DNA from: Eukaryota sp. GEM-RC1
Taxonomy: Eukaryota
Direction: 5' to 3'
Assembly: GCA_040285855.1 (NCBI GenBank)
Contig: JAUFOQ010000004.1
Location: forward strand, 124,001 to 188,000
DNA: 64,000 nt
The notes beneath the pieces were generated by a model. The model searched no databases, had not been told where the DNA came from, and saw only the letters and a list, made by a program, of their open reading frames with translations. This document shows positions 2,991 through 57,067 of this stretch, piece by piece. The translations under genes and the position numbers were made by a program. Every line of letters starts with the position of its first letter. The stretch's first letter is position 1.

Positions 2991-3053
2991 TTGATGAACA
3001 TGTAAAAAGGCCTTCATGATGACGTGACAAATTTGTGGGGGCATGGCTAACAT

Positions 3054-13059: not shown

Positions 13060-13163
13060 GTAAATTATGGGCTCTCTTTTAGAACAAACAAAGTTGACAT
13101 TTTGGCGCCAATTCTGATTCAACAAGTCTCGTTTCCTGCGCAATTTCGGATTAAATACCTTTC

Positions 13164-21727: not shown

Positions 21728-22267
21728 ATGTCCAAACAATCTCTAGCCAAAAAGGCGAAACTCTTTTGCTGAATCTGAGAAAGTTAACTCTGAAGTCTTT
21801 GTGCTTACCTATGGTTCTGTTGTCACTTCTGTTCTTAAGTCTTGTGAGTCTATTGAAGCTGCAAACACAAAACTTGACAAAATAGGTCAGAATATCGGTA
21901 TAAGACTTATTGATGATTTTTTAGTCCGTTCTGGTCTTTCATGCCGTAAATTTCGTGATACCGTAGATGGCATTAAAGTGGCACTAAAATGTATCTCAAC
22001 GTGTCCACAGAGTCGTTCTTTACATCGGAGATCCAGACTGAAGAAGAACAACTGGAATACACACTTGAACTTAGAGATAATCCCGTCAATGATTTTGTTG
22101 AGATTCCTGAACATCTCACTGGACTACGGTACCTTGCTATTCTCTCAGGAGCAATCAAGGGAGCTTTAGCTCAGACTGGAATGCGTGTGGAAGTAAAAGA
22201 AACAAGTTCTGTCCTTCGAGGAGATCGTGTTGACACTTTGCGTATTAAATATTTAGGAAGGGAATAA
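21728..22267 (+). CDS. BET3: TRAPP complex subunit Bet3/TRAPPC3 (frameshifts)
   Basis: EKVNSEVFVLTYG, LDKIGQNIGIRLIDDFL, KMYLNV, DNPVNDFVEIP, LSGAIKGAL. Confidence 0.92.
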
Positions 22268-30376: not shown

Positions 30377-30974
30377 TATAAAAGAGGAAAGAAAAAATTC
30401 CGATTATTCAGTTGGTAAAAACAGAACAGAAAAAAGTCTCAACAGACGTCACTACCCTTCACTTAGTCTCATTCCATGATCAGAGTGTCGAGATGTAATG
30501 AATAAACACTGTCGTTAATTTGGAATCCAATTCTGAACAACGTTCTTATCCTAAATGAACATCATAATACTGCTGATGAAGTCTCAGTTTGTGACAGGAT
30601 CGGAAAGAATATTTAACAATAAATATCGCCCTACCCCTCAACTACAGTGAACACAACTTGTTGGATCATACAATGAATCTTAATCTTCTACATTTACTCT
30701 TTTGACTTCAGTATTGACCAGGGTTTCTCATAAATAAACATAATTTATATTTATATTTATTTTTGCCACTTTTTCACGATCATACAACTAGAACAAAATA
30801 GAACAAAATATATATAAATATGAATAAAACGCCAGAAAATACACTTCATTGATCTACTTAGTGCACGAGTTAATTAATTGCTCAAGGTTTTCTATGAAAC
30901 TTTATGCAGTACCCAATAAGGTAACCTTCTTACAAAACTATGAAATTGTAAAAACAAACAAATAATACTAAGAT

Positions 30975-31755
30975 CACTCAACAACCACGTTCTTTGGGTT
31001 TGCATTTGTCTGATGAGGCTTGGAAATTAAATATGCGATTGCGTTTAGGTTTGTTTTCTGCAGAATTGCTGGACAATTCTGAGTGCATTTGTAGTCATCG
31101 TCGCAGTGCAACTTTTAGACATCTAATTAATTGCCCCAAATTTATTCAATTTCGCTCAGTTCTTCATAATGCTGTAAAAGATGTTACATTTGAAATGTTT
31201 AAGGCTCATGGATTTCATGCCAAAGTTGAACCCTTATTTAGTAAGTTGGGTCTTGATTTAATTAATAATTCTCGTCGAGGTGACTTACATGGTCCTTTCG
31301 TTGATTCTAGTCAAATTATCCTTGATGTTACAACAGTTGATCCATGTGCTCAAACTTATGTTAATGGCTTGAATTCAAAAGGTTTTAATCACCTAGAAAC
31401 AGCTGAAAAACGTAAAATTGATTTGTATTCCAAAGATGTTGCTAAACTCAATCAAAATTTATATTTGTTCCATTTGCTATATCTATTTTTGGTAGTATTG
31501 GTGAAATGGCTTCTAAGTTTTAAACTGATTTTGGATCTATGTGTCAGTCTCAGAATAATAGATTTAACATATCAATTTGGCATAACCGTTTGATTTTTTC
31601 TTTGTTCCGTTCGGTGCCTAAGTTTTTTAAGTCAATCTTCACAAAGTTGTATAAGAACTGTGGTACTGTTGACCAGGAATTTTCTGTGTCTATTGTTTCA
31701 TAGCTTTTATTATGATATGTATTTGTGTACCCTCCATCAATAAACTGTATTTTTT
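30975..31755 (+). mobile_element. 5'-truncated CRE-like non-LTR retrotransposon (CCHC plus restriction-like endonuclease domain)
   Basis: ORF 30994-31593: C.C...HLINC...LHN...EP...RGDL...DVTTVDP...AEKRK. 10-bp TSD ATACTAAGAT (30965-30974, 31756-31765). Confidence 0.88.
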
Positions 31756-32408: not shown

Positions 32409-34711
32409 CATGGTGCGCAAATTAGCGGTACGTACCGATTTATTTTATCCGTACCGATGACATTTGATGTCTAATACAGCTGTGTTCATAAACAATTTTA
32501 TTCTATTCAAAAACACTATTTCCAGAGTTTAGGTGCATCAAACTGTCAAAGTCGGCATCATCACAATTTTCTTCTGCCTCTTCCATTCGTTTGGAAATCC
32601 ATTGTTCGAGTCTTTGGGCCTTTTTGAGTGATCTCTCACGTAGTAGTCGTTCGTTAAATGCTATGTGAGTTAAAGCCGACAGCGTTGATGTTTTCATACG
32701 ATTCCTAAGCTTCGTTTGTACCATTGACATTGTGGAAAAGTTACGCTCAGCAAATGATGTGCTGCTGATTTGACTAAGAGTGATTATCGCGATCTTTTGA
32801 AGTCTTGGATATCCAGAGCCATGTTTCTCCCACCACTCACCTGGAGACATTGTATCAGCCAGTGTACGAATGAATTCCGTTGCTTCTGCAATTTCTTGAG
32901 CAAAGCTGGTCATATCGTTTGGGATCACAACCCCATTAGCTAAATAGGCTGTCAATTCACTTTCACAGATATGAGCATCTCCTTCCTCAAGAAGCTTACT
33001 ACAGAGAGAATAAAAACTAGCCATAATACGCAACATTTGTTCACTTTGCCCCAACCCCCTTACTGCTTCGAAATGTTTAGGATCCAACAGAAAGGCAACA
33101 TATTGGATCGGAGTCAGCAACATACTGATTCTTGTATCGTAGGCTTTCAAGATTTCGTTTCTTTCTGTTGCTGACAAAAGGTTGGAAAACTGGTTCCAAT
33201 TTCCGATCGGACGGTTGCAATTGTGGGCACAATTCTGCTGATGTAATGTGCCTCCGAATCAACCATCTGTAAAAATACAACCACTGGCTTCCAGAAAGAG
33301 ATGATCTGTTTCACTTGATTCCAGAAGAACAGATTTTGAGTTTCATTCTGCAAAGCAGTGTAATCACCTCTCTGATCCCGATTCTGTTTCTTCACCCAAT
33401 TCTCGAATAGAGGGTCAGCCAGTGTTTCAACAACGGCTTCTCGTAACTCATAGATTCGAGACAAGCTCAAAAAATGAGTATAAAATCGTGTGACAGCATA
33501 CTTGATCAACATTTTTGAGATTTTTCAAGGAAGAGACGTTTTAGTTCAACATGGTTGTTGATAACTTTAACAATTTTGTTAGCAATGCCGATTACTGTTT
33601 TAAATTCTTGGCTCTTACAAGAATCTTCGAGAAAAAGATCCAAACAATGTGCAGCACATGAAGTTGTGTAGATTTTTGGGTGTACTTCTTTAATAAGCCT
33701 CGTAGCTCTGAGAAAATTTGACCCATTATCTGTCACAATTTGAACAATTTTGTCTGCTCCGAATTCTTGAATGTGAGCCAAGAGATAACGAGCAATAACC
33801 TCTTCGCTGAGTTTCTCCCTAAATTTTTTTGCTTCTCGAAATACAGCACCATCAGCTGAAACCAAAAGCACATTGACAATAGTTTGATCGTTGACGTTTT
33901 TCCACCCGTCACAGATCATTGTGCACTTTGTTGTTGAAAATCTTTGCATTATAGGAATAAGACGATCTGTAGTATCGAAAACTGTTTCCTTAAGAGTCAC
34001 AGTTCTAAAAGTGGTGGTACTAGGAGGTTGCCAATGCTTACCGTATTTTATGGCTGATAGAAGTAGGTCAGAAAGTTCAGAAGATTCAATGGCTCTGAAT
34101 GGAACATTGAACCGCGCAAACAGCTTCATTGCGTTTTGGTTCATTTTACCATGTCCCACTGTTTGAAAATCATCCAGTTTCGCTTGTTTAAGTGGAGGTT
34201 GAGTTGTATCTGAGGTCTGTGGGACTAAAACTACAGCTGAAGGAGAATGAGGAGGGGATATCGGATTTATTCCAAAAGATCGTATAGCACTTCTAATTGC
34301 CATTGTGAGAGAGCTTTGCGGATTCTGACAAGGAGCACACCCAACATTTTTAATCTCAGGAAGAAAGTGACCCAAGATCCGTGACTCTCTTCCCCTTAAT
34401 GTTCGAGGACAGTGGCGACAAGTAGCAACTAAGTTTCCATCGATCTTATGAATATCAGTGAGTTGTTCTGCAAGAGCAGTGTTTCTGAAGAAGCTCGACA
34501 TGTAAGATGGAGGGAAGCCTATGTATTCAGTAGAGTATAGTTGATACCAAATTAATTCTCACAAGGGTTATCATCTACTAGTACATATTTGGAATCAATC
34601 ATATTTATTTTTGTCGGTCAAAAGAACAGTACTGGTACACGTACTGTACGTACGTACGGTACGGTACGGTACGCCTAAAATCGCCTCGGTACGGAACATT
34701 TGCGTTCCATG
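32409..34711 (-). mobile_element. Full-length hAT DNA transposon
   Basis: TIR CATGGTGCGCAAAT / ATTTGCGTTCCATG; perfect TSD TCACCACC (32401-32408, 34712-34719); GTACG subterminal repeats; transposase inside. Confidence 0.93.
32503..34501 (-). CDS. hAT transposase (BED finger, DDE core, dimerisation domain; two frameshifts)
   Basis: CRHC..H..C, CDGW, TDNGSN, CAAHCLDL, TRF, WWEKHG...AERNFS...KLRNRM across ORFs 33506-34501, 33147-33512 and 32503-33177. Confidence 0.92.
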
Positions 34712-35494
34712 TCACCACCCGGTAAAAGATTACGTTTTTCAACATTAACCTTCACACCAAACTTGTACAATCTAATTCAGGTTTTCTATTGACTTGAAAT
34801 ACCTTGACGTGAAGTTTGAAATACTGAAGCAGACACAAATCAAAGTCAAGTCATTTTTCCTCACACTTTGCAATTTCAATGTCGAACCTAACCGATGCAG
34901 ACGAGCCTTTGCTTGTGTTCTGAGCCAAATTAACGACTATGTCCGGGCATATAATCAGTGATCGATTCTCATGGTCGTCTACGATGCTTAATATTGAATT
35001 GTTGAAGATCCACAGATCTTTATGGAATGGCGACACAGTTAGAGCAATTATACGAAGCAGAAATTCAACTAACCTTTTCGACAAGAAAGGGATGATCAAA
35101 TGGATTGTATATTCATCGATATTGACTGAGAGAAAAAGTACTAATAAAATATTTTGTTTTTATTTGTGTTTTATTTTGTTTTAATTCTATTTATTTCACA
35201 TTTTTTTGCACTTTTTGATGTTCAAATTATTTTAAATTATCTTCTAAGAGGGCCTGATCAATTTGCAGACTTCATTACATTTATACAAATCTGTAATACA
35301 ACAATGTTAATCTCCCTTGTTAATATTAATGATGATTTTGATTAATAAAAGGCGTTTTTTATATTACAATCAACAATTGCGGTAATCTACAGCAAGACAG
35401 AATAACCGAATCTTAGTCCAGTCAACGCTAGTGGTAGAATAGTTCAAATAGGTTACCATTGGTCACTTACCAAAGACATTTGTCGAAAGTATTT

Positions 35495-36217: not shown

Positions 36218-36300
36218 ATTGAAGAAAAGAACAAGTTGACTTTTGAGAACTAGAATGAAGAACAAATTCTTTCCTTGTTTCTACACAATTCCTATCTGTG

Positions 36301-37317
36301 ATGCTCAATCTCGATCAAATCATTGAACAACTACGAAAAACTGAACTTCCTTCTGAAACTCAAGTTGAGCTGCTGTGTAAACAAGCAGTTGAAATGTTTC
36401 TAGACGATCCAAATGTTCTTTCACTTCCTGCTCCTATAACTGTTGTCGGTGACATCCACGGTCAGTTTTTTGATCTTCTTGAACTCTTTGAAATCGCTGG
36501 TCAATGTCCTGGTACTCGCTATCTCTTTCTAGGTGATTATGTTGATCGAGGCTTCTACTCAGTTGAAACTTTCCTTCTACTTTTAGCTCTCAAAGTTCGC
36601 TTTAATGACCGAATGTTTCTTCTAAGAGGCAACCACGAGTCTAGGCAAATCTCTCAAGTATATGGCTTCTACGATGAATGTGTCCGTAAGTACGGTTCTC
36701 TCAACATTTGGCAACAATGCATCGATGTCTTTGACACCCTTCCCTTGGCTGCAACTCTGGGAGATAAAGTTTTCTGTATCCACGGTGGACTTTCTCCTAG
36801 TATGAGCACTATTGATCAGATCAGGTGCTTAGATCGACAGCAAGAAGTTCCTCACGATGGTTTAATGTGTGATCTTCTTTGGAGTGACCCAATGGACTCC
36901 GAATCTCCTATTTCTACTGAAGTTGAAGTTAGCGAAGAGCTTGGTGACGTCATGCCTACTAAGAATCAAACAGAAACCCCTGATAGCACTATCACGTCAA
37001 CTTCTGGTTGGGGGCTTTCTCCTAGGGGGGCGGGGTATTTGTTTGGTGAAGACGTGACCAAGTCATTTCTACACGCTAATAACGTGGAAATGATTTGTAG
37101 GGCTCATCAACTGGTTTTTAACGGCTATCAGTCTCACTTTGACAACAAGGTGTTTACTGTTTGGTCAGCACCTAATTATGTATATAGGGTAGGTAATGAT
37201 GCTTCAGTAATGTCTTTTGATGAAAAGCTGGAGTACACGTTTACTCTTTTTAGTGCAGCTTCAATGGAGAAGCAGGGACCTTTAATACGGAAACCAATTG
37301 TAGATTATTTCTTGTAA
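36301..37317 (+). CDS. PPP4C: PPP-family phosphatase, PP4-like catalytic subunit
   Basis: [38 protein letters not shown]-terminal DYFL. Confidence 0.85.
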
Positions 37318-37869: not shown

Positions 37870-38697
37870 GTTTCTTTTAATTGACCGTTGTAATAGTGGA
37901 CCTTCTGGATGTATTTCTCAAATTCCTAAGGTTTTAGAATTACATCTATCCGATGAAGCTGGGATGATCAATATGCGTCTTCATTTGGCTATTTGGCCAG
38001 CAAATTTATTAAACTATTCAACTTGCTCTTGTGGAGCTAATGGTGTTTTTCGTCATTTAATTAATTGTCGTTATGTTATTAATCTACGTGCAGTAATTCA
38101 TGATGGTGTACATGATTCTTGTAATTCTATGTTTAAAACACATGGTTTTCACTCTAAAGTTGAACCAGTTTTGAATCACCTTTCAGAAAATGAATTAACA
38201 GACCAACAAGAGGGGATCTCCATACTTCATGGCTTAAATCGAGTCAACCATTAATGGATTTTACTACAGTAGATGTTTGTAACAAATTCTGTGTCAGTAG
38301 GATATTAGATTCTTCTTTTAATCCATTAACAGCTGCTGAAAAGCTCAAACATTCCAAGTATAACTCTCAAGTAGAAGAATTAAATAGAAACTCATATTCC
38401 AAATTTGTGTTCCAACCTTTTGCTGTTTCTCGTTTTGGATCGATTAATCCTGCTGGTGATCAATTTTTCAAGGATTTCGAAGAACTGTGTAAGGAAAAGA
38501 AGTGTAAGTTTAGAATGGCTGAATGGAAAAACCATATAGTGTTTTCCATATAATGGACTATGACTTTCTATTTTTCTCGATTAGTTGGTGTGAAGGTTAA
38601 TGTTGAAAAACGTAATCTTTTACCGGACGTGAATGAAGTCGTTTTTGCAATTTCATAGTTTTGTAGGAAGGTTACCTTATTGGGTACTGAATAGAGT
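37870..38697 (+). mobile_element. Decayed CRE-like LINE 3' part (RLE domain) with the family 3' terminus
   Basis: ORFs 37964-38254 and 38254-38553 (CSC..HLINC...HD...KVEP...DFTTVD...AEKLK..KY...FQPFAVSRFG); 3' motif at 38659-38697. Confidence 0.85.
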
Positions 38698-38784: not shown

Positions 38785-38940
38785 AATCGCATATCGTATG
38801 TTAGCGTCTGTTTCTAGCGCTGTATTATCTCTAGGCAGACATTATGAGGATAAGGTAGGTGAGAATTTCCAGATAGTCAACCTGGACTTTGAGGATATTG
38901 ATTATTAGATGTATGTACACTGTAGTGTTGTTGTCAATAA
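38785..38940 (+). repeat. Dispersed repeat, probably the 3' end of another LINE subfamily
   Basis: High similarity to 56811-56980; ends in AATAAA. Confidence 0.7.
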
Positions 38941-39885
38941 ATAGAGTTGTGTAAACAAAATATGTTAATGTTGATGGTATTCTATATTTGTAAACCAGAA
39001 GGAGAAATCAAATGTGTTTCTTGTTTGAGCTATAAAGCACCAATAGCAACAACTATCCGACATCACAATCAACCAGAGCGTATTCATATACCATATTTCG
39101 TGGTGTCATATGAATACTTTAGCCAGGAGCAGTCCTTTATTAGTTCTACCCAATTGATAAGCATATTTCAACTATAGAGGATTGCATTTATCATCAAAAC
39201 AAGATTATGTTGAACAGTCCTAAAGTGTTCAAGATAGACATTGGTGACTATGGGTTAGACAGGTTAGTGATACAATCAGAAATGGGTCACTGAATGGACG
39301 ATTCGAAATAAAAAGACCATATTACTGTGTTTTATACGATATATATTATAGGAGAGGAAGAGATGTGAACACGGAGGGAGAAAGAGATTCAAACATAAGA
39401 TACATGAAGAGAAGCTACAGGAACTAAGAAGAAGAAACGGAAGGAGAAGTCAGGAGGAACATTACGGAATTTTGGTCTGTATTTTATGGAAAGCAGCGAG
39501 AGTGACGAATGGCCAGGGTTGTTAATTTTGAGAAGATATGTTCAAGTGAATTGAGAAGATCTTCAACTTGATGAAGAAGTGTTTGCTAGACATTAATAGT
39601 GGTTTCAGTCATCAGCAGGTGGCTTATTTATGACAGATGCTTCAAGAATGTCCTTGAAAGTACACAAAGTTATAAAGACAGTCAAGGTATAACAAGGTAT
39701 AACAAGAAGAAAACAAGACGAAAAGGGGTGTAAGAACTAGAAGAAGTTTTACTGTAGTATTAGTATGAAGGAAAACAAACTGCATTCCAAAATCAAATTG
39801 AACTATAGATCACGAAACGGAATCCAATGGAGGGGAAAGTAAGAACAAATCAATCACATTATCGACACCGACTATTCTTGGTTTC

Positions 39886-42800
39886 ATGAATCCCTTTCCG
39901 TCAGTGAACTGTGCTAGAGGTCCTGTTTCTCCTCATCCAATGAGAGGTGTGAAACGCCTTTCAATGGAACTATCTCCAACTCCATTGAAAGCACAAAACA
40001 TCCAGACATTGGATAAATTATTTTGCTTTATGGAAATCAGAGCTATTATCTCTGAAGACCATCGCCTCAATCCAGAGGTCGCTGAGGAACATGACAGTGA
40101 TGATGAAGACTGTCAAGGGCCACAAGTGAAAGACCTAATACACGAGTTTTCCTATGATGGAAGTAACGATTCCATTGTTTCTGTATCAATGGAATTTTGC
40201 TCGTCTCTTGGGTGTCAAGGCGACACTTATCTCTTTACTTGGGGTTGCAATGAACTATATATTCAAGACTGTTCTATCAATGGTTTTAGTTCAGAAACAT
40301 TGATGCTGGTTAATCTGATTGAATTCCTCAAAGCTATGCGTCCACAGCTTTTGATTGGATATAACTGTGACAAGTTCACTTTTCCATTTTTGATTTCAAG
40401 ATGCAACCATTTGATGATTGATGTTAATTTTCAATTTGACGGATATACTCCATATGTACCCACATGGTTTAAGAGATGGTGCAAAACGTCCTCTTTTGGT
40501 CCATTTCACTGCCTGGATTTAAACTCAGTTTTAAAATCCTTGTACAAATTTAAAGGTGGTCGCTTTTTGGAAAACGTAACTCAAATTATGTTGGAACATG
40601 ATCAAAAAAATTGGAAAAATTCCGAATTAATACGAATTCTAACCAATCCTCTGTATAATATTGATGAAGCTATCGCTAATTTCAAAGCGGAAAATAATGT
40701 TTCTGCACTATCTGCAAAGCAATTGTTTAGGTTAAAAACTTCTAGTGAACTAAAAACAATCAATGACCTTTGGAAGGCTTCATCAACAAGACCCCGTTTA
40801 CTCCAAAATGCAATTGATCGCCTGCATCTGTTAAAATTCATTGCTTGTGACTTGTTTGATGGAAACAAGCAGAAAATCAGAGAAAAATCTCCAATGAAAG
40901 TGATTAAAAGAAGACTCACCAAAGTTGTGACAAAATCAAAAATCAAAGTTATCGAATCGTGTGTGAAAAGAAGTCACCACGTTAGAGTTCGAGGAACTCA
41001 CTTCCTAAAACATTTTTGATTCACGAATTTGACTGTGAATATTTGAAATTTAGAGATTCTATGGGAACACATTGTAATTTGCCAAATTACTCGAAAATTC
41101 TGGATCAGAAACCTCTGAAGGTTTTGTTATCTTTGATGACGATCAAAGAGGACGGCTCATCTGACCATTTGAGCCAGATAGTCCTTGAACGCCAAGAAGA
41201 CCTGAAAAAGGTCGCAAAAAAAACCAATTCTTTGAATCTGTTTAAAATTCGACTTATTAATCATCTACTCACTAAGTTCCTTCCTCTTTTGAACGCTGCT
41301 GCTATAGTTGCTGGTAAGCAAATGGTAAAATTCCCAAGTAACTTGTACTTACCCAGACTACTTGATTACATGGCCACTGAGATCTCCACCAGTTACAAGA
41401 ATAATATGGCAAAACACTTTCACTCCTATGTCTTTCGAGTCTTCAACTTAGTAACGGAGAAAAAATCTAGAGCCATGAAAATTGAGTGTGAAGATGAACG
41501 AAAACTTTTTTCCAGCGGCTTAACAGCATCCGAGAGTTGATTGTCAACGGACAAATTGATTTAATTGATTTTCAGGATCAAACTATTTTTCCCACCAATT
41601 CTAGGTTAACTATTGCTTTTAGGACTTACTTGACATGTCAATTAAACAAGAAAATGCCAAAGGGATTATACTATGCTCAAAAAGTAAACCCTCTTAAGTT
41701 CCTTTCACATGCAATCTATCTGAACAGACTGATTGAGGAATTCTGTGATAATGTCTCCGTCACCAATCCCTTTCCAGTGACGTCATCACTAATTCCTGGT
41801 CACGTGAGACTGGACTCTAACTGGTTTCAATTGAGATTCTTACCAGATCTCAAGGGAGAAATGGATACAATAAGGAAGGAATTATGGAATACTGTTCTTA
41901 AACCAAAATCAGTTCCAACTTCCCTATCTTATGACTTTGCTTTTACCTCTATTACAACGGATGGTGTTTCTACTTCCCTGCTCATGACAAGAAAGGATTT
42001 GTTGGACTCTCATGGAAATCCTAGAAAAAATCTTTCAGCAAATGACTTGGCTGCGGAAGAACGCTATGTGGACTCTCTGACAACGGAAGAAATTACTAAA
42101 TTAAATCTCACAGGCAAAAAAATCGTAGCAATTGATCCTAACCAACACGATTTAATCTTTTGTGTTAGTCCGAAAACTGAGAGCGAAAAAAATTCAAGAG
42201 GGATTTGACCTGTCAAATAAGACTCGATCTAAACAGCTTTCACAAATTAATTGCAAAAAGAAAGGGGGGATACAAAAAGAGAAGAAGAGACTCAAAAAAG
42301 AAAAGAAAAGACTCAAAGCAGAGACAAAAAGAAAAAAAGAAATCACCAAAGTTAAATTGAAAAAAAGCCACAGCTGGAAAACATTCCGGTACACAGCTGG
42401 TGAACGAACTGCTGACCAGAGAGGCAGATTTATCAAGAAAAAGAAAAAAGAACAAGCAACCATATGAGCAAGTCAGAGAGCCTGACGATGAAACCTCAAA
42501 GCTTCTGAAATTCACCACTACAGTAAATGGTCGTCACATGACTGGCAAGGAAATTGCTGATAATTTCAGCTCCAGAGTATCCTCTGGCAAGGTAAATTCG
42601 GTTACCCCAGATAAGTAAGTACCCTTTTGGTTACGTCATTTTGGTTACCCCACAACCACTTCTGCGGGGTAACCAAAAGAATAGAAGTACTTTGTAGATA
42701 AGTACAGTTTGTATCTGACAGAAACAGAAGCTTATGGGGCTATGATAGACACATTTTACGAAGAAAAGTCTTTCCGACGCCAGAGACTGAAGAGGTACTC

Positions 42801-43694
42801 GAACAATCAGATGAGTCAGCAAAATATGCTTCATCGTTTTGCTCAAAAGTTCGGATCACCAGGAGAAGTAATTATTGGTTTTGGTGATTGGATTGATTCT
42901 AGAAAAGCCAAACGAACTGGAAAACGATCATTTGTAAAAGGCAAATCTATGAGGAAACTTTTCCGAAAATTCGGATACCAAGTTTTTCTAGTCGATGAGT
43001 ATCGAACTAGCAAATGCTGTTCGAGTTGCACATTGCTTGGAACAGAAGGCTTTTGCTCGAACCTAAAAGATGACAAAGTCCGAGACCCTAATTGGAAAAT
43101 TAAGTTAAATCGTAAAAAGAAGAAACTTCAGAAAGAGGTTGTTGAGTATAACCAAAAATTACTGTTGGGTAAAGATCAGAGAAACTTTAAATATGAATGG
43201 GAAAAGAAAAAGATGGATTAAAAAGCAAACTCCAGGAAGCAAAGGTTTCACTATGGGGCTTAGTGCGATGCGCCACGTGTGAAACATACTGGAACAGAGA
43301 CTTTAACTCTGGTATCAACATTCACAGTATTATTGAAGCAGCGATCCAAGGTAGAAGTAGACCTTCCGTTCTTGAGAGAAAAAAATCTCAAACAAATGAA
43401 TTCGAGAACGGAATGGCGATTAAGAAGAAAAGAAAATGCACAAACTGCGGCGAAGTCGGTCACAATTCTAGATCATGTTCTAAGAAGAAGAAAGAAAGGA
43501 AGATGATTTCAAAGATTTTGAGAGAGTGTTCAATATGTCATGAGACAGGTCATGACAAAAGGAACTGTCCGATGAACAGAAAAACTGTTGATCAACAGAA
43601 GACAAAAGAGAACGGAACAGGATCAACAGAAGACTGTAGTGCTAAAGTTCATATAGCTCCTCTTAGAAGTGTGAGCAAGAAAGTCTGCATGTAA
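39886..43694 (+). CDS. Fanzor1 RNA-guided endonuclease with an N-terminal PolB-type exonuclease-like domain and two C-terminal CCHC knuckles (about 1240 aa after repairing 5 homopolymer indels and removing an 87-bp insert)
   Basis: Fanzor1 motifs in order: LDYMATEISTSYKNN..HF, IPGHVRLD, SITTDGVS, RuvC-I VAIDPN (D 42134), FRYT, FYEEKSFRRQRL, IIGFGDW, RuvC-II LVDEYRTSKCCSSC (E 42997), LWGLVRCATC, RuvC-III WNRDFNSGINI (D 43299), RP..L.R. Confidence 0.9.
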
Positions 43695-43701
43695 ATGTAG
43701 A

Positions 43702-43781
43702 GATCTGTGAAGTATTATCAATGGTGGTATGATTTGTAGGGAAGACCTAAATTATGCAATTGATGTGAAAATCACAGGGTC
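43702..43781 (+). ncRNA. Candidate Fanzor omegaRNA scaffold (long stem-loop)
   Basis: Starts 8 nt after the Fanzor stop. Four stacked helices (43702-10/43772-81, 43716-22/43759-65, 43727-34/43750-57, 43737-40/43746-49) with a GAAGA loop; several G:U pairs favour the sense strand. Confidence 0.55.
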
Positions 43782-43816
43782 ACTGTTTAATCATTTTTCG
43801 TTTCTTGTAACTATTA

Positions 43817-45919
43817 ATGGGTAATTCACTATGTCACACAAACACTTCCGTTGAAGACGATCCTGTTGAACAGGATGTTCTAGATGAACTTCCTGATGAC
43901 TTTCATGATGGAGAGGAGCGTTTCTTTCTCGAAGAAGAAGAACCTGAAGAAGTTGAAGAAGAGAACTTCATGGCCATAAGACCCTGGATTGGTCCTATGA
44001 ATGGATCAACACCTATGGAATACCGTGATCCTAACTCCCTTCCCCCCAAACGAAGAGCCTAAGAAAAGTTTGATGCTGGACTACGTTTATGGCGGTTTGT
44101 ACCTCCCTGCTTTTCCTTATTCCAGTCACAACTCAGGGAATCCGTTCACATGTCCAATTTGTGAGTGACGATATGCTTGTGTATCCCGCTGCCGGAGTTG
44201 GTGTAGTCCTCTCTATTTCCTCCAACTTTCAATCCTTCTTCCGTGGACACAACAACGATATTTCCGCCTTAGCTGTTTCCAAGGACAGGTCTCTGGTTGC
44301 CACAGGACAGATTGGCAAACGCGCCAGAGTTTGTATTTGGGACCCCATTTCACTGAAAGAAGTTGGTAGTTTTACTTCTCTAGAAAGAGGTGTTATTGCT
44401 GTTGCATTCGACCATACTGGCCGCTATGTTGTTGCTGTGGGTAACGACGACTATCACTCTGTTGCTGTCTATGACATTAAAGCACAGAAGCAAATAGCAC
44501 TCCAACGTGGTGAGCGTAACAAAGTTTACCATCTATCTTCCTCTGCCGCTGGTTTCATCATGGCTGGTCACAACTTTGCTCGTCTTATTACCATCAACAA
44601 CGACGCAGTTGACATTAAGAAAGTCCTCTTTGGTTCCGGATCCTCCCGTGCTCAAGTTGTTCCCTTCCCCTGCTGTGCTGCACTTGCTGATGGAAGAGGT
44701 ATTCTAGGTAGTTCTAAGGGTGAACTGTACATTATGAGTGGTAACTCTGTTACTAGCACTGTTCAAGCTCACAGTGGACCAGTACTAACGATCTTTGCTG
44801 ATGATTACGGAGTTGTTAGTGGAGGAAGAGACTGTACCGTTAAGTTGTTCTCCACCAGTCTCAAGCAACAGACTTCTGTTAAGTTAGGTGCTCCTATCCG
44901 CTCGGTCTCTCGTCTTCCCTCGGCTTCTTCTCTCACCACTGGACTTGCTGTTACTCTTGAAGATGGATCTATTTATCTCTTTGATTTCATTGAAGATGAA
45001 GGTAAACTTATTCAGAAGTGTCATGGTACTCTGTCCTATGCTGGTAAAGCTGGTTTAACCATCTCTGAAGCCTGGGGAATTGCCGTTTCTCCTACTGCAC
45101 CTGAGTTTGCTTCTGTAGGTGACGATGGTCAGCTAATTAGATACTCTGCTGTTGACAAGAAGGCTCTGAACTATATTAGATTGCCTAATGTGTCACGGTC
45201 TGTTTGCTATTCCCCCTGATGGAAGGATAATCGTTACTGGTCTGTCTGATGGAAGAGTTGCCTCTTTTAATTCTGAGACTCTTGAGAAGCTAAACATTGT
45301 CACTCTACCCCGAAGAAACCGTAGACCAATTCCTGATCAACTATCTAAACAGTTTGCTGAATGTGGTGTTTCTGATATTAAGTTCTCTCCTGATGGTGAG
45401 ATGATTGCTTGTACTTCTCACACTCAGGACATTTTCGTTCTTTCAAAGGATTTGCAGTTGTTACACACCATGGCAGGCCACACTGCTCATGTTAAAGCTT
45501 TCGATTGGGATACCACCAGCTCTTATCTTCAGTCAATGTGTGGTGGTTACGATTACCTTTTCTGGGACGCTAAGAATGGTAAACAAGTGACCTCCGCTTC
45601 ATTCTTTGCAGATAAGGAATGGGCCACCTGGAGTTTAGTTATTGGATATGCTACCAAGGGTATTTTTAAACCAGCTCAGAAAGGAAGTGATATTAATACT
45701 GTTGCTAAATCTAATAACAGTGACCTTTTGGTAACTGGAACTGATGATGGTACTGTTGAGTTGTTCAATTTCCCTGCACTTCATGATAATCAAGAACGTA
45801 AAATGTATTATGGACATTCTGCTCATCTTACTGGTGTTGTATTTGCTCCTAATGATGAGATGTTGTTCTCTATTGGAGGGCGCGATAACTGTATTTTATC
45901 CTGGTTTGTTGAAGAATAG
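43817..45919 (+). CDS. EML/EMAP-like HELP plus WD40 microtubule-associated protein (31-nt intron 44095-44125; two frameshifts)
   Basis: FMAIRPWIG, spliced LDYVYGVTTQGIRSHV, YPAAGVGV, GHNNDISALA, WATWSLVIG, SDINTV, YYGHSAHLT, SIGGRDNCI; N-terminal MG..C. Confidence 0.88.
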
Positions 45920-46240: not shown

Positions 46241-49200
46241 TTACGAAGATCTAAAGTCAATATGTACAAGTTTCTTTTCACTTTCTTTAGATCCAGTACC
46301 TAAAACACCATTATTGTTGTGTCCAATAGAAATAACACTTTCATCAGACAAAACAAAGAGACTGAACCGCAGTCCAGCATGAATGAACTCAACATTGGAT
46401 ACATAACTATTCACAGATAATGGTTTAGAAATATTGATCTTTTTGAACCTCCTAGAGCTGTCTGAGAGTCTGAATTCCAACCGTAAGCCCAAATAGAACC
46501 ATCCTCCAGAATAACAAATGAATGATCTTCCCCAGCAAAACAAGTGGAAACATTTTCAAAGAATTCAAATTGAGCCGGAACCATTGATTGAGCTCCTTTA
46601 ATACCGTTTCCGAGAAGAGCTCGTTCTGACCCCCATGTCCACACGTGATCGTCATCAGTTAAGGCAAGTCCATGACGAGGAGAAGAAGAAATAAACTTAA
46701 CCTTGTTCATACAAATCCTTGTAGGATAATTATACGTCTTTAATCGTAGATTACCAGTTCCCAAGGTGCCCTCAACATTTTCTCCCCAAGACCAAATGAA
46801 ACCTCCAGAAGTAACTGCAAAAGAGTGATTAGCAGAAGCAGATAAGTGAACAATGTTATCTAGGAAAGGTACCTGAATAGGTTCCAATCTATTTTGATTG
46901 GTTCCATCACTAAAGTTAGAAATTTAAATATTTTAAAAACGTACCCTAATTGACCCATTTCATTGTGACCCATGCTCCAAACAGTTCCATCAGTTTTCAA
47001 GAACAACACGTGTCTACTGCCTCCCGCAATCCACTTCACGTCATCAATGCAATCAAGAAGTGTTGTTTTGAAAACTTCTTCAGTAAAAAAGACTTTACCC
47101 GCACCAAAGACTTTACCTTTACTAGTCAAGATAAACACAGACATGTCAGTAGCAAACACAGCAACAGGCTTCAGATTCCCTTCAAATCCAGGCATTTCTT
47201 GAGGTGAAAAACACCTCCCAGCAACTCCTGATCCAAACTGACCGTGAGCAAAGCAGCCCCAACCCCAGATAGTAAAATCCCTCTTAAGATAAATGGCAAA
47301 CTCATTGTTAGAGACATCAAGAGGTTGTCTGTACATGAAAGGGCTTGTTGGGAACTTCATTTTAGAATTGGGAGCGCACAGGTAGTAAGCGTGAGGATTG
47401 GGACGGGAAACGTTTCCACCATTGAACTTGAATCCGATTCTAAAGGGCTCAAAATGAGAACTTCCAAAACAATCACCTAATTGACCGTATTGATTGATTC
47501 CAGAGCATAGGATAGTTCCATTATTCTGAACAAACAACGTGAACTTGTAGCCGGTGATGACGTGACAGATGTTGCCGTGAGCTAGAGTGATTGGCTTGGA
47601 TGCAGGGCTATTGCTAGAATCACCTAGTTGACCCCAATCATTTTGACCAAAGCAATAGACTTTTTCTGAAGTAATACAAATACAGTGATCAGCAGCAAGA
47701 GAAATATTTAAAATATTTGGAATATTTGAGTACAACACTGGAGTCGTATACCACTGAGAACTAAGGTTTAGTCCAATGTTCTCTCCCCAGAAATAAAGTC
47801 TCCCAGCCACGTCTACAGCTACAGAGCAATTAGCCCCAGCAGCAATCAAGATCACGTCATAAAGGCCATAAACTCGATCAGGTGACGTCACTCCAAAGTT
47901 AAAAGCATCTTTCCTTCCATTTCCCAGCTGTCCTGCTTCGTTTGCTCCCCAACTATACACCAGTCCTTCACTACTCAAAGCCAACGCATGACCCCTACCT
48001 GCCGCTACTTGAACAATATCTTTTAACCCAGACACTTCGACAGGGGACTTGTGATTCTCAGTAGTCCCCAATCCTAAAGATCCCATCTTTCCCCTTCCCC
48101 ACGTGAGTACGGTACCATCATCACATAGAGCGATCCTAAAGTCATCTCCAACAGCAATGTCTTTCACTGGAGGAATAGGTTTAGTTTGAATGGGAACCTC
48201 GCGGTCTCTTCCATTGTACTTCCCCCAGGCAAACACCACGCCGTCTCTTCTCCTAGCTAGAGCGGTAGAGTAACCGGCATAGACAGCTGTAATGTCGTTG
48301 ATATCAGGGATTTGGGTAGGGATCAAAAGTTTGTCGACGTCTTTGATTCCTAATTGTGATTGTGAGTTGTTACCAAAAGTCCAGACTGTACCATCTTGTT
48401 TAAGACATGTGCAAAAGTCCTCACCAGAAGAAAGCAATGGTTTAAAAGCAGATTGATCAGGGAAAACTAGAGTTTCTGAAAGAGTTGGGACTGGTAATTG
48501 ATCTACTTCCTCCTCTTCTTCCTCATCTTGTTCTTCTTCAAACACACTATCAGGAAACTTAACAACTACAAGTGAATGTCCATCCTTTAAAAACCCTCCC
48601 CTAATTGACCACAAGAGTTAGAGCCAAAAGAAACAACTTCCCCATTATTCAATAAAACAATATTAAAGAAACTTCCAGCAATTGATGACGTGACAGGGTC
48701 AGAAATAAACACGGGTGATGGAGGAATGAATCGATCTTCTGGCAGCTCAAATGAAACACAAGCTTTGGTGTTCCATCCCCAGCAATAAAGAATTCCATCA
48801 CTAGTAACAGCAGAGAAGTGAGAGGAGGAGCAAGAGATTGCAGAAATGTTTGAGAGTTCTGTAATCATGACAGGTTCGTTCCTGACAACTCTGTCTTTGT
48901 TGACGTAATCGTAAACGTCACCCCATTGGTAAACAGTTCCATCAGATTTGAGAGCCATCACGTTGTAGCGAGAGGCAGATATTTGAACGACGTCTGTGAT
49001 TGATGTGATCTTGACTGGAACTGTTTTAGGAAGGTTCTGACTGTCACCATGACGTGATGCGAAATCAGCATTCGTCCCCCACGCGTATAGAGCTCCTGAT
49101 TCACCAACAGCAAACGTATCACTATCAGAAGGGCAAATATCAATGATTTTCTCAGAAAACTGAATATGCACGGGTAGCTTTTGAATTCCTTCAATACCAT

Positions 49201-50612
49201 TACCTAGATAAACAACATCTTCAGTTTCATCATCAGTCCAGCCCCAAACGTGACCTTCCTCATTCAGAACATAATAGAGATCTTTACCTGCGAATATTTT
49301 AGAAACATTTGAAATTTTCTTTAACAAAGTGGGTACTGGTATTAAATCGTCATTAGCACCATTAACAATTCTAACAAACACTTTTTTTAGAACAAAGCTT
49401 GTGGATGCCTCTGCCCCACCCATAGACTTTTCCACTTCTACTTACTGCGAAAGCACACTTTTTAGCAGAGCAAACATAGACAATGTCTTTGAGATTAGGT
49501 ATTTGCCTGGGATCAAAACGATCCCCATCATCACAATCAACGACTAAAAGATCGTTCTTGTTACTTCCCCAGGTCCAAACACTTCCATCATACCTTAGAG
49601 CTAGGCAGAAGTCGTCCACAGTAGAAACTTGTTTGAAGTAGTGACGAGGTACGGTGGGAAATAAAACATCCTGAGCATCAGAGTCTAACATTTCCTGTAC
49701 ATTGTCAACTTCTGGAGACTTCTCTTCAACAGTTTCGATGGGGATGAAATCATCATCAGAATCAAGAACATCCATCAAATCCTGAGCAAATGATCGTTCC
49801 CTGCCCTCAACACAGGAATCAGAATCGTCATCATCCTCAGAAGAAGAGGACTCTAAGAGGAGGGAGAGATCTATGCTGGAAGTGGACTGCCTGAGGATAT
49901 CAGAAGAGTCATGCTCACCTAGGGGAATTTCAGTAGGAGCAGGAGAATCTTCAAGAGAATCCCCAGGTGAAGTGACAGTAGATGTTTGAGGAGGGGATTG
50001 GGGTGGTTGGTCAGAGGAAGAGACGTTGTCAAGAGCAGAAGCTACGTTGTCAAGCATAGCGGAGTAGGAAGAGAAGGACTGGTAGATACCATCGAGGGCA
50101 TCCATGTAATGGGATAGAATAGTATAGAGTTGAGCGAGGTCAGTTGATCGGGGGGTCGACAAAGAGGACACTGGAACATGAGGATGAGAGAGTTTGACTG
50201 CGGAAAGGCTACCATCAGTGAAACAGAGGAATATATTATCAGTTAAAACACGACCGTGAGTGATTCCCTTAGAGTGAAGATATGAAAGAGCATGTAGTAG
50301 AGATCTAATAAGGATGAAGGTTTCCCGTTGGTTGAACAAATGTGGATATGTTGCTAGAGAGGTTGATTCAACTGCTAGCACTAAACCAGGGGGTTCTTCT
50401 GTAAATCCGAGAACGTCAACGAAGTACTGGGAGATCTCGGGATCAGAAATGGTATTGACGATTTGGCGAATAGTAGAAAGTGTCTTAGCAGAAGGAGAAC
50501 CAAACTTCTTCCATATGATAGCGGATGAGTTATAGATGCCTTGGTAAAGATCGAAATGTGGACATTTGTCGATGAGGGTTAGGTCGGAGACATTGGAAAT
50601 GTCAAACGTCAT
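46241..50612 (-). CDS. Pseudokinase plus multiple RCC1-repeat protein (35-nt intron 46910-46944; frameshifts)
   Basis: N-terminal kinase-like fold (ALSYLHSKGITHGRV..DNI, no HRD or DFG), then many DG.VWTWG.N..GQLG RCC1 repeats. Splicing restores GQLGDGTNQNRLEP. Confidence 0.85.
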
Positions 50613-50949
50613 TGTAGTAAAGTTTCAATGACAATTTGTGCCACCCGGGTGGTTTTCAAACACTGATTTGTGGTATCGTGACCATTTGTCAATAACTGAC
50701 GAATGATCACGATTAGACCTCACAAATGACGAATTCGCTACTGACGATCGTCAACGATTCGTCAGCGTCAATGCTCATATTGCATTTTGTCGTCGTCGTC
50801 GAGTCGACGAATTATTTTTTACTTTAGTCGATCTTCCGTGACGAAATTTGATTCCAGTAAAATAGTGTGTCCGTTGTGAATATTATGTCTGTCCATTGTA
50901 CTAGTATAACAACACGGATATGCCTAAGCACATAAATAGTACTAAATAC

Positions 50950-52060
50950 CAAAACATAACATCTTTTGTTTCCAGGACATTCAACTACAATATGAATTTC
51001 ACAACTGTTGATCCTTGTAATTCCAGATATAGCCATTAGAATGGAATCACTGCGAATAAATAACCTAGGACAATTAACCAAATGATGAAAAGAAGAGATC
51101 TTCGCCGATTTCCAAATACACTTGCTATATTGCAGTAAACCAAAAGGCACAATCCTGGACGTAACCCTACATTTTCTTGCCATTCATGGTCTTCTAGATT
51201 AAAGATGTATCTACCTGGAAGTTGGGTAATACATGTAAGAGAAAAACATTCATTGTAAAATAATTGAAGTACTGGAGTCAAAACACTTAAATTTGAAATC
51301 ATTAGAACAAAATCCATCACGATCAAGTCACACAACAGCTCTGTTCTTATAAATCAGGGGTCCAGAAAAATATATAAATAATAATAAATAAAAAATTAAT
51401 TAATTAATTTTTCCATCTGAATTGTTAGCTAATACTATGTGTTGTTGTGAAAAGAGACAAAAGCTGACTTCAGACACATTGTTAGTTGCAAAAAATTTCT
51501 TCAGTTTAGATCGATTTTACACAATGCTGTTCGTGACGTTACGTATGAAATGTTTAAATGTCATGGGTTTAATGGGAAAATCAAACCTCTTCTTAAGCAT
51601 TATAGTGATGATAATATTACCAATTCTCGACGACGTGATCTCATTGTTCCATAGGTTGATTCTTGTCAAGCTGTGATAGATTTTACTACTGTTGATCCGC
51701 TAAAGTATATTTGAATTCAGTTGCGAGTGATACTGAAATTCATTTATGCAAAGCTGAAAAAAAAATTAGTACATATTCTGACACAATGATCAAACTGAAT
51801 TCCAATTTGTATTCTTCTTTTAAGTTCATTTCTTTTGCTATTTCAATTCTTGGTAATATTGGATTTGCTGCTGAAAAATTCTTTGATGCCTTTTCAAAGT
51901 TGTGCCGTGATCATAGGAAAAATTTTAATCAGTCTCTTTGGCGCAATAGCATTGTTTTTTCCTTATATAGAAGTTTCCCAAAGTATTTGAATCGTATTCT
52001 GGACAAATTGTATCGTGGTAGTTCAAGAGTAGATGTGGATCATTTAATATGTTTTAACTA
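50950..52060. mobile_element. Cluster of decayed CRE-like LINE fragments in both orientations
   Basis: FTTVDPC near 51000 (+); HEWQENVGLR..HHLVNCP at 51030-51340 (-); DFTTVDP..AEKK..FAISILGNIG..WRNSIVFSL at 51420-52050 (+). Confidence 0.75.
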
Positions 52061-52264
52061 CTGGTTGTTTGTATTTCGTTAATGTATAACATAAAAAAAA
52101 AGTATAATATATAAATAATAATAAATAAATAATCTACTTTAACTAGCGTCTTCTAGTTTTGGTTAGTGTTCATTGTACGTGGTAGCTTGGTGTCTTCACA
52201 TGAAATCGTGTTCTTAAAAATACTCTCTTTCTGTGTTTATAAATTAACGAAATACAAACAACTA

Positions 52265-52458
52265 CACTGGTCACAATATTTAGTCTCAGTGGAAAATTAG
52301 TCTCACTGAGACTAATTTATGTATTGCGTCCTTTTCGACATTTTAGAGGCAAATGTCGCCAGATGATAATTAGTCTCAAGTGAGACTAATTTATGAATAG
52401 ATCATTTTGAAACTAGGTTATGAATTAGTCTCACTGAGACTAATTGTTGTGACTACTC
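52265..52458. mobile_element. Small MITE with palindromic internal repeats
   Basis: Left end TA-CACTGGTCACAATATTTAGTCTCAGTG; imperfect right inverse CACTGAGACTAATTGTTGTGACTACTC; three AATTAGTCTCA-(1-2 nt)-TGAGACTAATT palindromes. Confidence 0.65.
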
Positions 52459-52482
52459 AAAAGATATTTATTAGACAGAGAG

Positions 52483-53240
52483 ACTTTATTCGGTATCCAA
52501 TAAGGTAACCTTCCTACAAAACTAAGAAGTCGCAGAGCTTGAAGGAATATCATTGAAAAGAGCACAAACAGTGGGACTCTTAGTGTTAGTCAAGCCAATA
52601 CGGTTTTTAACGTCCAAGCTTTGTGAAACAAAACAAACTTCTTCTATAACTTGAGAACAGACCAAGGCAATGAGAAAATGCTCCTCTGCTGTTACCCCAA
52701 CTGGAAATAAATCTGAACACAAATTGGAGTCAAGATTATAAATTAAATCTGAAGACTAGATAACCATGCACAAGGTGAGTGAAGTAAAAAACCATTCGGC
52801 TTGCATAACAAAGGATACGATTCTGAAATTCAAACAAAAAATTCTTTAAAGACCCCAAAAGGCACCATCACGGGTTTACTTAGCTTTCGTGAAACCAATA
52901 CCACCAAAAAAAAAGTCGAAGTAAAACAGTGAGAAGGAAGTGAAGAGTCTTTGTTACCAACCAGACAATTAACAAAATTTGTGCGCAATGAATTAAAATT
53001 ACGAGATAATTCGAGAGTTAGTTCGGGAGGTAGACCATGTAAAAAGTGATTAATTTTACCACCAAAACAAACTTGCCACATGGCAAAAAAACAACTGTTT
53101 GCCCACATCCAGATAAACAATTCGGTTAAGGTTCTGGAAGACACATCTATTCTTATGTGATAAAGTCTCCATAATTTTGTCATCATCACCAATATAATTG
53201 CCCTATAACTTGATACGTCCATCTGCATAATTGACAAAAG
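52483..53240 (-). mobile_element. Internally deleted CRE-like LINE (RT thumb region joined to the family 3' end)
   Basis: G.YIG, KINHFLHGLPP and GGIG thumb-like motifs; reverse complement of the family 3' motif at 52483-52521. Confidence 0.75.
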
Positions 53241-55346: not shown

Positions 55347-56580
55347 CTATGACAAGTAACTGGGTCTAACTCCTGCTAGTAGACCCCGCTCCAAATGATG
55401 CTCTACAATAGCTTTGAAGTTGATTCATGCTAACTTACGATTCCACATTTTCTTCTTATCACCACATTCTTCTCTACACTTCTCAGACTGACATCACAAC
55501 AACGCATGTAACTTCACCATAGGCTTCTTTTCTTGTGTCTTGGGTCTTGGATTGTTAACTTCCATAAACACTTTAACTGGCCTCCAACAAGTAGGACACT
55601 TTGAAGACGTGTAACTCTCATCTACAAGAACAATATTGTAACCATTTCTCTTAAAGAAGTTTCTCCACCCCACACCTCTACTTGATCGGAGGTGTTTTAG
55701 GTTCTGCATCTTATTACCATTGTCACCAAACATCTATACACTGTCATTTTTATTCAATCCTTTTTCAGTCATATTTTTCAACAATTTACTTTCTGTTTTT
55801 TGAATATGGACATATCTTTGCATTTTTGAACGCGCCATATCATCAAACAGTAGTAATCAAATGTTGATTCAATAACTGTCAGTTTGGAACTCACATAGTC
55901 GTAGAAGGTTTCATAAACGGTCGACTTTGAGTTTTTTTTTGGATAGTGTTGACTCTTCTTGTTCAACAGTTTTTCCATTTTCTAGAAAGAATCTTTTCTT
56001 CTTCATTCTCCTGAACTTTTGATGGACTCTAGACAATCTCAACCATTCTGTCTCTGTTTATCTTAGCCACTCGTATTCTTTGTTTCTCATTTTACGGGCT
56101 AAATTTTGAGGCCTTCTTATTTTTTCTGAACAGAAGTAGAGTAAATCGTTTTTGCCAGGATCAATGTAAACTTTTGTTTTCCATGAAAACTCTTCAATAT
56201 GATAGTCTTGAACATATTCATCAGTACTGGAGAACTTTGCGCTATCTGGTTTAAATGACATTCCCACACAGTCCTCTCTGGCAAGTTCAACACAAGCAGA
56301 GAAACCATCAGTTTTAATAGAATTGTTAAACTTATTATAGCCTTTCTTTTGAAATGGACGATTAAAATGGAAAAAGTATGTCCAGAATTGATTTTGTTCA
56401 GTGGGAGCTGAGTCATGTGATCAATTTCAACTTTTGTGTTCCACTCAGATCTTCCTTGTTATTTTAACCTGATGATTGGTTAATGTGGAACGAAATATTC
56501 CCCAAAGACCTTGTCTATCCACTTCAAAGAAGCCTGGAATCACATATGCTATTACACTGTCTTTGGAAGCAATAGTGTAA
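55347..56580 (-). pseudogene. Decayed second Fanzor1 gene
   Basis: NSIKTDGFS, RuvC-I VYIDPGKNDLLY, NSKST, FGD, GVGWRNFFKRNGYNIVLVDESYTSSKCPTC, NPRP...LHALL*CQSEKC...WNRKLA*IN...RPSYLS*; in-frame stops and frameshifts. Confidence 0.88.
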
Positions 56581-56810
56581 TATATGTTGTAACATAAAGG
56601 ATAATTTGACTAGAATCAATAAAAGGACTGGTCTTATTGTGTTTTTGTGTTTTCAGAACAGTTGTAGTTTGTATTTTACAGCTTGAATTCAACTAGCAAA
56701 CTCAATAATTGCCGTACTAGTATGTTATCTAAGAAACATATATTAGTTTTGCAAAAACTTATAGCCGCTATTTAAATGTAGATATTGTTTTCGGTCCTGT
56801 TCTAGGTTCA

Positions 56811-56980
56811 AATCGTGTTTGCTATCTTTAAAGGTATGTTTACTTCTGTATCTAGCCCTGTATTATCTCTTGGCAGACATAATGAGGATAAGGTAGTTGA
56901 GAATTTCCAGATAGGTAATCTGGACTTTGAGGATATTGATTATCGGATGTATGTAGACTGTAGTGTTGTTGTTAATAAAA
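56811..56980 (+). repeat. Dispersed repeat, probable LINE 3' end
   Basis: Matches 38785-38940; encodes IVFAIFKG, like the C-termini of the other RLE LINE copies. Confidence 0.7.
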
Positions 56981-56981
56981 G

Positions 56982-57067
56982 TAAGAATGAAATTCCTTAA
57001 AGATGAACTTACATCCTGTTTTGTTAAACATAGGATTTAAGTTCATCTTGAAGGAATTTCATTCTTA
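56982..57067. repeat. 86-bp near-perfect inverted repeat (foldback)
   Basis: TAAGAATGAAATTCCTTAAAGATGAACTTA (56982-57011) vs its inverse at 57038-57067 with 1 mismatch in 30, plus a further inner stem. Confidence 0.9.

Follow-up and report, generated by a model that had tools for sequence, protein, structure and literature searches.

A 3'-5' exonuclease domain of the family-B DNA polymerase (PolB) type and the RNA-guided nuclease Fanzor1 are almost certainly fused in one chain in skoliomonads, at a locus found in a 64,000-nucleotide stretch of Eukaryota sp. GEM-RC1 DNA (the window). The exonuclease domain of the window copy has lost its catalytic residues and, judged from these, is very probably inactive. 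In the sister species, Eukaryota sp. TZLM3-RCL, the residues are intact and the domain is predicted to be an active exonuclease, which we consider likely. Both organisms are Skoliomonas, free-living metamonads (PMC11316075).

A polymerase proofreading domain in front of Fanzor1

The whole open frame runs from 39802 to 41019 on the forward strand and is closed by a TGA at 41017-41019. Read from its first ATG (39886..41019, +) it encodes 377 aa, made up of a short linker, the exonuclease domain and the start of Fanzor1, and four other records begin at the same methionine. The exonuclease domain, of the DEDDy type and catalytically degenerate, occupies 40015..40860 (+). The frame matches Pfam DNA_pol_B_exo1 (PF03104) with E=9.6e-10 and 38.7 bits against a cut-off of 23, its best 44 PDB sequence matches are family-B polymerases without exception (44/44), and Foldseek and VIA also return PolB matches. 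Modelled from a 23-row alignment (mean pLDDT 58, core 70-94), the domain overlays human Pol delta (Z 17.4, rmsd 2.8, 176 residues aligned) and matches the ASFV, archaeal and Pol epsilon exonuclease domains as well; because three of the alignment rows were full PolBs the fold comparison is partly circular. A model from the single sequence reached a pLDDT of 35 only. With a score over the curated cut-off and a DEDD fold, the domain belongs to PF03104.

The domain shares its profile, fold and ExoI/II/III layout with PolB proofreading domains (Pol delta 3IAY/9EKB, Pol epsilon, ASFV, archaeal PolB), and Pol delta is its best PDB match both by sequence and by fold. It differs from them in a helical insert ahead of ExoIII and, in the window, in the loss of the catalytic residues. 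Unlike family-B polymerases, the fused domain has no N-terminal domain, palm, fingers or thumb: Pfam searches found no palm (PF00136) in the ORF, in the downstream pieces or in the fused relatives, and did find it in two PolBs used as controls (P0011, P0012). Lacking a palm, the protein does not qualify as a family-B DNA polymerase. Homology extends slightly beyond ExoIII towards the palm linker. These results bear out a sequence-only reading of the locus, which had proposed a PolB exonuclease domain with no palm behind it. A surface motif, Y-x-F-x-GGR-x-L-x-NV, is invariant in live and dead forms and lies at the position of the Pol delta YKLRSYTL segment. As to the origin of the domain, Pol delta heads the PDB lists, viral PolBs score equally, the top Z values are tied and the Atlas neighbours are mixed; the origin tree has long branches and includes just 9 reference PolBs, with no named eukaryotic polymerase among them.

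Catalytic residues are lost in the window copy

The peptides on which the sequence-only reading was founded all lie in frame 39802-41019 (+): FMEIR at 40027-40041, DSIVSVS at 40168, GYNCDKFT at 40357-40380, HCLDLNSV at 40507, NAIDR at 40807-40821 and THFLKHF at 40996-41016. The substitutions it described are confirmed. At ExoI (40033..40041, +) the window reads E-I-R instead of D-x-E. ExoII (40357..40380, +) retains Asn and Phe, which are single-strand DNA contacts, and has Thr in place of the Asp of the sister-species GYNCDKFD. The ExoIII region (40735..40821, +) can be read in two registers. Structure ranges place the site at NAIDR, as had been proposed, and the MAFFT and hhalign alignments place it at KTSSE (40735-40749); since neither has Y-x-x-x-D, the loss of the ExoIII Tyr holds regardless of register. 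With gapless ranges assumed, and with catalytic numbers that we take to be D290/D477 in Pol epsilon, D515 in human Pol delta and D324 in T4, the structure ranges align ExoI with model residues E19/R21, and the Asp of ExoIII with R281 in NAIDR. Scored against the residues of an active exonuclease (D-x-E, N-x3-F-D, Y-x3-D), the window copy has thus lost the ExoI Glu, the ExoII Asp and the ExoIII Tyr; the full set is present in 7/7 sister-species records that span the domain.

The exonuclease-Fanzor junction lies ahead of a frame break

The fusion had been thought to depend on one missing T at 41013-41017. The fusion itself is real, and the dependence is not, as Fanzor1 already starts at about 40873 and the break falls within it. 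Likewise, the interval 40012-41019 had been assigned to the exonuclease as a whole; the assignment holds for about 40015-40860, and the remainder comprises the first ~48 Fanzor residues. The start of Fanzor1 (40873..41036, +), which we take to be the first strand and helix of WED/REC, was located with an HMM of 17 viral Fanzor1 N-termini. In a sister copy (P0018) this HMM matches residues 330-384, spanning the break, with E=8e-4 among 14 targets. It matches the window part ahead of the break only weakly (36/2000 shuffles) and found no match at the expected place in the TZLM3-RCL protein P0009. Pairwise comparison of the ORF tail with one viral Fanzor was not significant (257/2000 shuffles; P0022 14/2000; P0009 1621/2000). 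Because the frame break is inside the Fanzor1 segment, the junction between exonuclease and Fanzor lies in open frame.

The break itself, a -1 shift in a T5 run (41013..41017, +), is most likely an assembly error. P0018, 98% identical to the window over the domain, carries THFLKHFLIHEFDCEY in one frame and so agrees letter for letter with the read-through KHF-LIHEFD that had been predicted. P0002, the only other copy that reaches the break, stops at the same site as the window. In a second subfamily 6/7 records reaching the site continue through it, and in one protein (P0022) a single 997-aa frame runs from 2A through Ulp1 and the exonuclease into the start of Fanzor. Sister copies break at differing base runs. 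Host genes behave similarly: the TRAPP and EML genes, both checked, are split at short base runs without an intron, the pattern of homopolymer assembly errors, and gene calls in the GEM-RC1 assembly are therefore likely to be fragmented. The Skoliomonas assemblies are Nanopore-based and Illumina-corrected, and are 48% and 28% repetitive (PMC11316075). Since the Fanzor1 start is in frame, P0018 continues through and host genes break at like runs, the fusion is independent of the T run. The split host genes in the window are a TRAPP/BET3-like gene at 21729-22264 (+), an EML gene at 44074-45919 (+), and repeat-rich surface-type and RCC1-like genes at 15667-21235 (-) and 46241-50624 (-).

A Fanzor1 body with a complete RuvC triad and a stop-bearing insertion

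The Fanzor1 body occupies several frames between 40873 and 43694 (+), and the downstream pieces align along their length with P0009 and a viral Fanzor1. The RuvC triad is complete in the window (Asp 42134, Glu 42997, Asp 43299), and a C4 zinc finger is formed by 43018-43029 and 43269-43280. Fanzor1 proteins are defined by D-X(125,275)-[TS][TS]-XX-C4-X(5,50)-RD (Bao and Jurka 2013). In the window, about 262 codons separate Asp 42134 from TS at 43006 once an 87-nt insertion is left out, and 5 residues separate C4 from RD; the corresponding motif spacing in P0009 is 281, slightly above the defined range. The conserved Gly and the relocated RuvC-II Glu are present as well (GFGDW 42877, VDEYRTSKCC 42991, WNRDFN 43290), and GDW, relocated Glu and D-E-D triad occur in 6/6 full-length relatives. 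P0001 and profile A2 match SpuFz1, PpFz1 and GtFz1, with no Fanzor2 among the matches listed, and a profile of the relatives matches SpuFz1 with E=1.1e-10. P0001 is a C-terminal Fanzor fragment from a further GEM-RC1 lineage, and in the Fanzor tree it is more closely related to the RCL proteins than to the window copy; that tree has one outgroup clade only, so the split says little.

These proteins have D...TS-C4-RD, GDW, relocated Glu and an N-terminal segment in common with Fanzor1 (SpuFz1 8GKH, PpFz1 9CF0, GtFz1 9CER, giant-virus L001). Unlike Fanzor1 of about 650 aa, the skoliomonad proteins are 1394-1494 aa long and carry a ~290-aa exonuclease domain and a leader in front. They further differ from known Fanzor1 in a 2A-like peptide, in an Ulp1 protease in one subfamily and, in the window copy, in zinc knuckles; in the excerpts of the published descriptions, the sole extra domain of a Fanzor1 is the FRI insertion of PpFz1. 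The two CCHC zinc knuckles lie at the Fanzor C-terminus (43437..43568, +) and match Pfam zf-CCHC with E=1e-3, just under the cut-off; the sister-species proteins are without them.

The insertion (42609..42704, +) consists of a 78-nt insert and a 9-nt direct repeat (AGATAAGTA), forms a hairpin with copies of the adjacent GGTTACCCC (fold z -4.4, 0/200 shuffles) and contains an in-frame stop. Once it is removed its flanks join up, by eye, against P0001. An intron was considered and rejected, as GT-AG cuts of 83 or 88 nt leave the frame broken. The insertion is a lesion of another kind than the homopolymer breaks and probably inactivates the window copy. This copy has about six further frame breaks besides and is unlikely to be functional still.

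The expected omegaRNA and right end of the element are putatively placed at 43695..43830 (+). Single-copy folds of this region gave z values of -0.33 and -0.34, and Rfam returned no relevant match; a snoR66 match (E=0.045) was below the gathering score and was rejected. No terminal inverted repeat with target-site duplication was found between 38880-39890 and 43690-43840, and no transposase, element end or guide RNA was found for the Fanzor copy.

2A-like peptides and an Ulp1 protease

A decayed 2A-like (StopGo) relic lies at 39790..39837 (+), in frame with the ORF and 32 codons ahead of the first ATG of the window copy. It was first spotted by eye and then scored against the 2A motifs of the relatives, where it ranks first among 127,900 six-frame 16-mers taken from the window (28.3, next 25.5). 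The relic is non-canonical and has a stop inside: the class A motif D(V/I)ExNPGP is absent from an open frame in the window, where TIDHETESNGGE follows a stop. The canonical motif stands near the N-terminus of 11 related proteins, and one more has it with a one-residue change. The motif is that of the 2A/StopGo peptides of RNA viruses and non-LTR retrotransposons, with the difference that here it precedes a DNA nuclease. Such peptides are known from RNA viruses and retroelements (PMC3708506), and the part of a recent 2A survey that we drew on names RNA viruses and reverse-transcribing elements and never Fanzor (10.64898/2026.09.24.754024).

Between 2A and exonuclease, three proteins (P0005, P0021, P0022) carry an Ulp1 domain, with PF02902 over the cut-off and a His-Asp-Cys pattern; the window copy has none. 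A second, degenerate Ulp1-like repeat (HWGL...DSGFC) precedes the exonuclease in P0006 and also occurs in P0004. Fanzors of this kind would be evolving virus-like polyproteins of 2A, protease and exonuclease, an architecture that we did not find in the literature searched.

Relatives, and loss of catalysis in one species

When 1.84 billion representatives were searched exhaustively, 13 matches emerged: 9 were skoliomonad proteins and 3 were polymerase-type exonucleases, and the last was an unrelated lectin; a word-index search for the ORF among longer proteins found nothing. The records closest to the window (98-99% identical) are named Eukaryota sp. GEM-RC1 by their source, and more distant relatives TZLM3-RCL. 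TZLM3-RCL contributes 10 records in two clusters, 6 of which (P0009, P0024, P0034, P0037, P0038 and P0039, 90-95% identical) are unbroken chains of 1394-1494 aa with a canonical 2A motif, exonuclease and Fanzor1 with the full RuvC triad. FDVET, GYNCDKFD and YCxND are found in all seven TZLM3-RCL records that span the domain, the other 3 being partial. In a second RCL lineage (P0008) both ExoI and ExoII are intact, and its record contains no Fanzor.

Of the GEM-RC1-group records that span the ExoII Asp, 14/14 have lost it, and they belong to subfamilies that share only 32-41% identity with the domain of the window copy. The core of these dead domains is still alignable, with 21 invariant columns, which argues for long retention without catalysis; judging by protein identity only, the dead domain may be retained under selection. 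In a tree of 16 rows, the skoliomonad exonuclease domains (7/7) form one clade with support 100/98 and the dead forms are nested within it at 90/95, a nesting below the starred level in a tree with long branches and a base that is not settled. This topology suggests a single domain capture with catalysis lost later. The dead state is then derived, and the locus is of interest chiefly as a naturally occurring Fanzor with two nucleases, less as a pseudo-nuclease.

None of 54 Fanzor loci outside skoliomonads (viral and metagenome contigs, one a duplicate and many short) had the exonuclease domain or a 2A; the HMM used here recovered 7/7 PolB control loci. No relative turned up when viral sequences were scanned with the window piece, P0009, A1 and P0012, or in a metagenome scan with the exonuclease motif of the skoliomonad fusions. 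The closest outside relatives of the Fanzor part are in giant viruses. One viral Fanzor1 ORF of 847 aa (L006 2275-4800, +) has a P-loop-like GPSPSGKS in its first ~200 residues, before a shortened Fanzor start.

We did not find an exonuclease-Fanzor fusion in the literature searched, with supplements, subscription papers and Repbase outside its coverage and a table entry possible. The word 'exonuclease' occurs 0 times in the main texts, as excerpted, of PMC3627910, 10.1101/2023.08.09.552727, PMC10530073, PMC10691335, PMC10432273, PMC11423790 and PMC13565253. Exonucleases in other transposons are already known (PMC9587614, PMC6431247): KolobokD, P and piggyBac have DEDDh, and bdelloid Terminon and LTR elements DEDDy, 3'-5' exonucleases, likewise on eukaryotic mobile elements. 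By contrast with the skoliomonad fusion, these are DnaQ/TREX-like or stand-alone accessories of transposases or reverse transcriptases.

Possible roles of the exonuclease domain

In SpuFz1 and GtFz1, cleavage of the non-target strand falls 14-17 nt beyond the TAM (PMC10432273). An empty site that TnpB has cut regains the element by gene conversion, and the same has been proposed for Fanzor (PMC13565253). On the donor allele the element would sit between TAM and target, so that the TAM-side 3' end would bear a 14-17-nt tail, unpaired at the donor junction, that would have to come off. A tethered 3'-5' exonuclease could remove this tail, and copying would then enter the element during homing. 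A 2A skip would separate a variable leader from exonuclease-Fanzor, to which Ulp1 is added in one subfamily. In the window lineage, where catalysis is lost, the fold may persist because it holds the single-stranded 3' end or supports the Fanzor N-terminus, and host Pol delta would do the trimming. The sequence-only reading had likewise suggested that the domain may bind DNA 3' ends, or else that it may recruit repair factors.

We favour tail trimming because PolB proofreading does a like job elsewhere: the proofreading domain of T4 gp43 acts in intron homing (PMC12153337, citing Huang 1999), and in yeast break repair Pol delta chews back invading 3' ends and excises tails (PMC9477423). T4 td intron homing (I-TevI, gp43 proofreading, DexA) also brings together a homing nuclease and a PolB 3'-5' exonuclease on cut ends; it uses separate phage proteins and a protein-guided cut, whereas here one eukaryotic chain is RNA-guided, and the analogy is functional only. 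Tail trimming has a little under an even chance of being the purpose of the intact domain. Against it, the outside Fanzors do without the domain (0/54 loci), and SpuFz1 editing fell in an engineered fusion with a 5' exonuclease (PMC13434818). With neither guide RNA nor element end nor transposase found, homing itself is assumed, and a benefit of Fanzor to eukaryotic elements is an assumption from bacterial TnpB. Since catalysis is lost in all sampled subfamilies of one species, the activity is dispensable there; the host already has polymerase proofreading. In its widest form, which we offer tentatively, skoliomonad Fanzors would be 2A-released cut-and-trim homing machines, with a SUMO protease in one branch, that process their own break for gene conversion, the exonuclease of one lineage having become a 3'-end clamp. 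If this is true, no earlier RNA-guided nuclease is known to have carried its own end-processing domain derived from a polymerase.

In the window lineage the domain might instead be a structural relic that is packed on the Fanzor N-terminus, could not be cleanly lost and has no role with nucleic acid. The catalytic positions have all changed, differently in each subfamily (ExoI reads E-I-R, E-I-K, H-V-Q or D-F-K), the ExoII Asn and Phe are also changed in the second subfamily, and in the window the 2A has decayed and the Ulp1 part is absent. We nevertheless hold this to be rather unlikely, given that the surface motif Y-x-F-x-GGR-x-L-x-NV is the same in live and dead forms and that the window keeps the two ExoII residues that contact single-stranded DNA. 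Nor is a stump carried without benefit, left when a Fanzor inserted into a polymerase gene belonging to a virus or to some large element, at all probable. Such an insertion would fit the homology running past ExoIII, the giant-virus affinity of the Fanzor part and the equal match of viral and cellular PolBs to the model; but the catalytic residues have stayed intact in 7/7 sister-species copies, the domain is present in two species and in no fewer than four diverged subfamilies, both the polymerase N-terminal domain and the palm are missing, and the window flanks are host genes.

The DEDD fold includes RNases, and the domain could conceivably mature or hold the 3' end of the omegaRNA guide instead of acting on DNA. 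The two zinc knuckles of the window copy would suit such a role, and bdelloid retroelement DEDDy proteins have been proposed to process 3' ends (PMC6431247). The sequence, profile and fold matches are all to DNA polymerase proofreading domains, which makes an RNA substrate improbable. More doubtful than not, too, is the idea that the exonuclease makes the cut irreversible by chewing both 3' ends, so that religation is prevented and the target, for example a rival element or a virus, is destroyed or a deletion forced; we rate it as unlikely on balance. The RuvC is indeed intact, as is the catalytic set tethered to it, some CRISPR and OMEGA effectors edit better when fused to exonucleases (PMC13434818), and the DEDDh of KolobokD has been proposed to degrade DNA intermediates (PMC9587614). 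However, removal of 3' ends should oppose the recombination that benefits the element, and an engineered fusion to T5 exonuclease, a 5' exonuclease, lowered SpuFz1 editing (PMC13434818). The natural fusion offers a comparison for such engineered ones, including the one that failed on SpuFz1. Because the family has both living and dead versions, tail trimming, like any other post-cut step, could be tested directly by one point change.

Genomic setting

The locus is a single copy of a repeated mobile Fanzor1 gene. The DNA around it is compact and eukaryotic, with a Ser/Thr phosphatase gene (36259-37317) as one neighbour and the EML gene, from about 43830, as the other. A hAT transposase in two frames is present at 32503-34558 (-), with DUF659 at E=6e-34 and hAT dimerisation at E=1e-13; no link to Fanzor was shown. 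Fragments directly upstream of the 2A relic (38941-39700, +) resemble a decayed hAT transposase by eye, which neither Pfam nor comparison with the window's own hAT confirmed. Dispersed repeat remnants lie at 30952-31593 and 37871-38553, and near 2200-3700, 7900-9040, 34700-35250, 51470-52530 and 56580-57075. They have no Pfam match, and their peptides are reminiscent of the restriction-like endonuclease end that non-LTR retrotransposons carry. Two tandem paralogues (12991-14127 and 14524-15600, +), also without a Pfam match, share CVDGR and GCGH motifs, which we take to recall metal-binding carbonic anhydrases.
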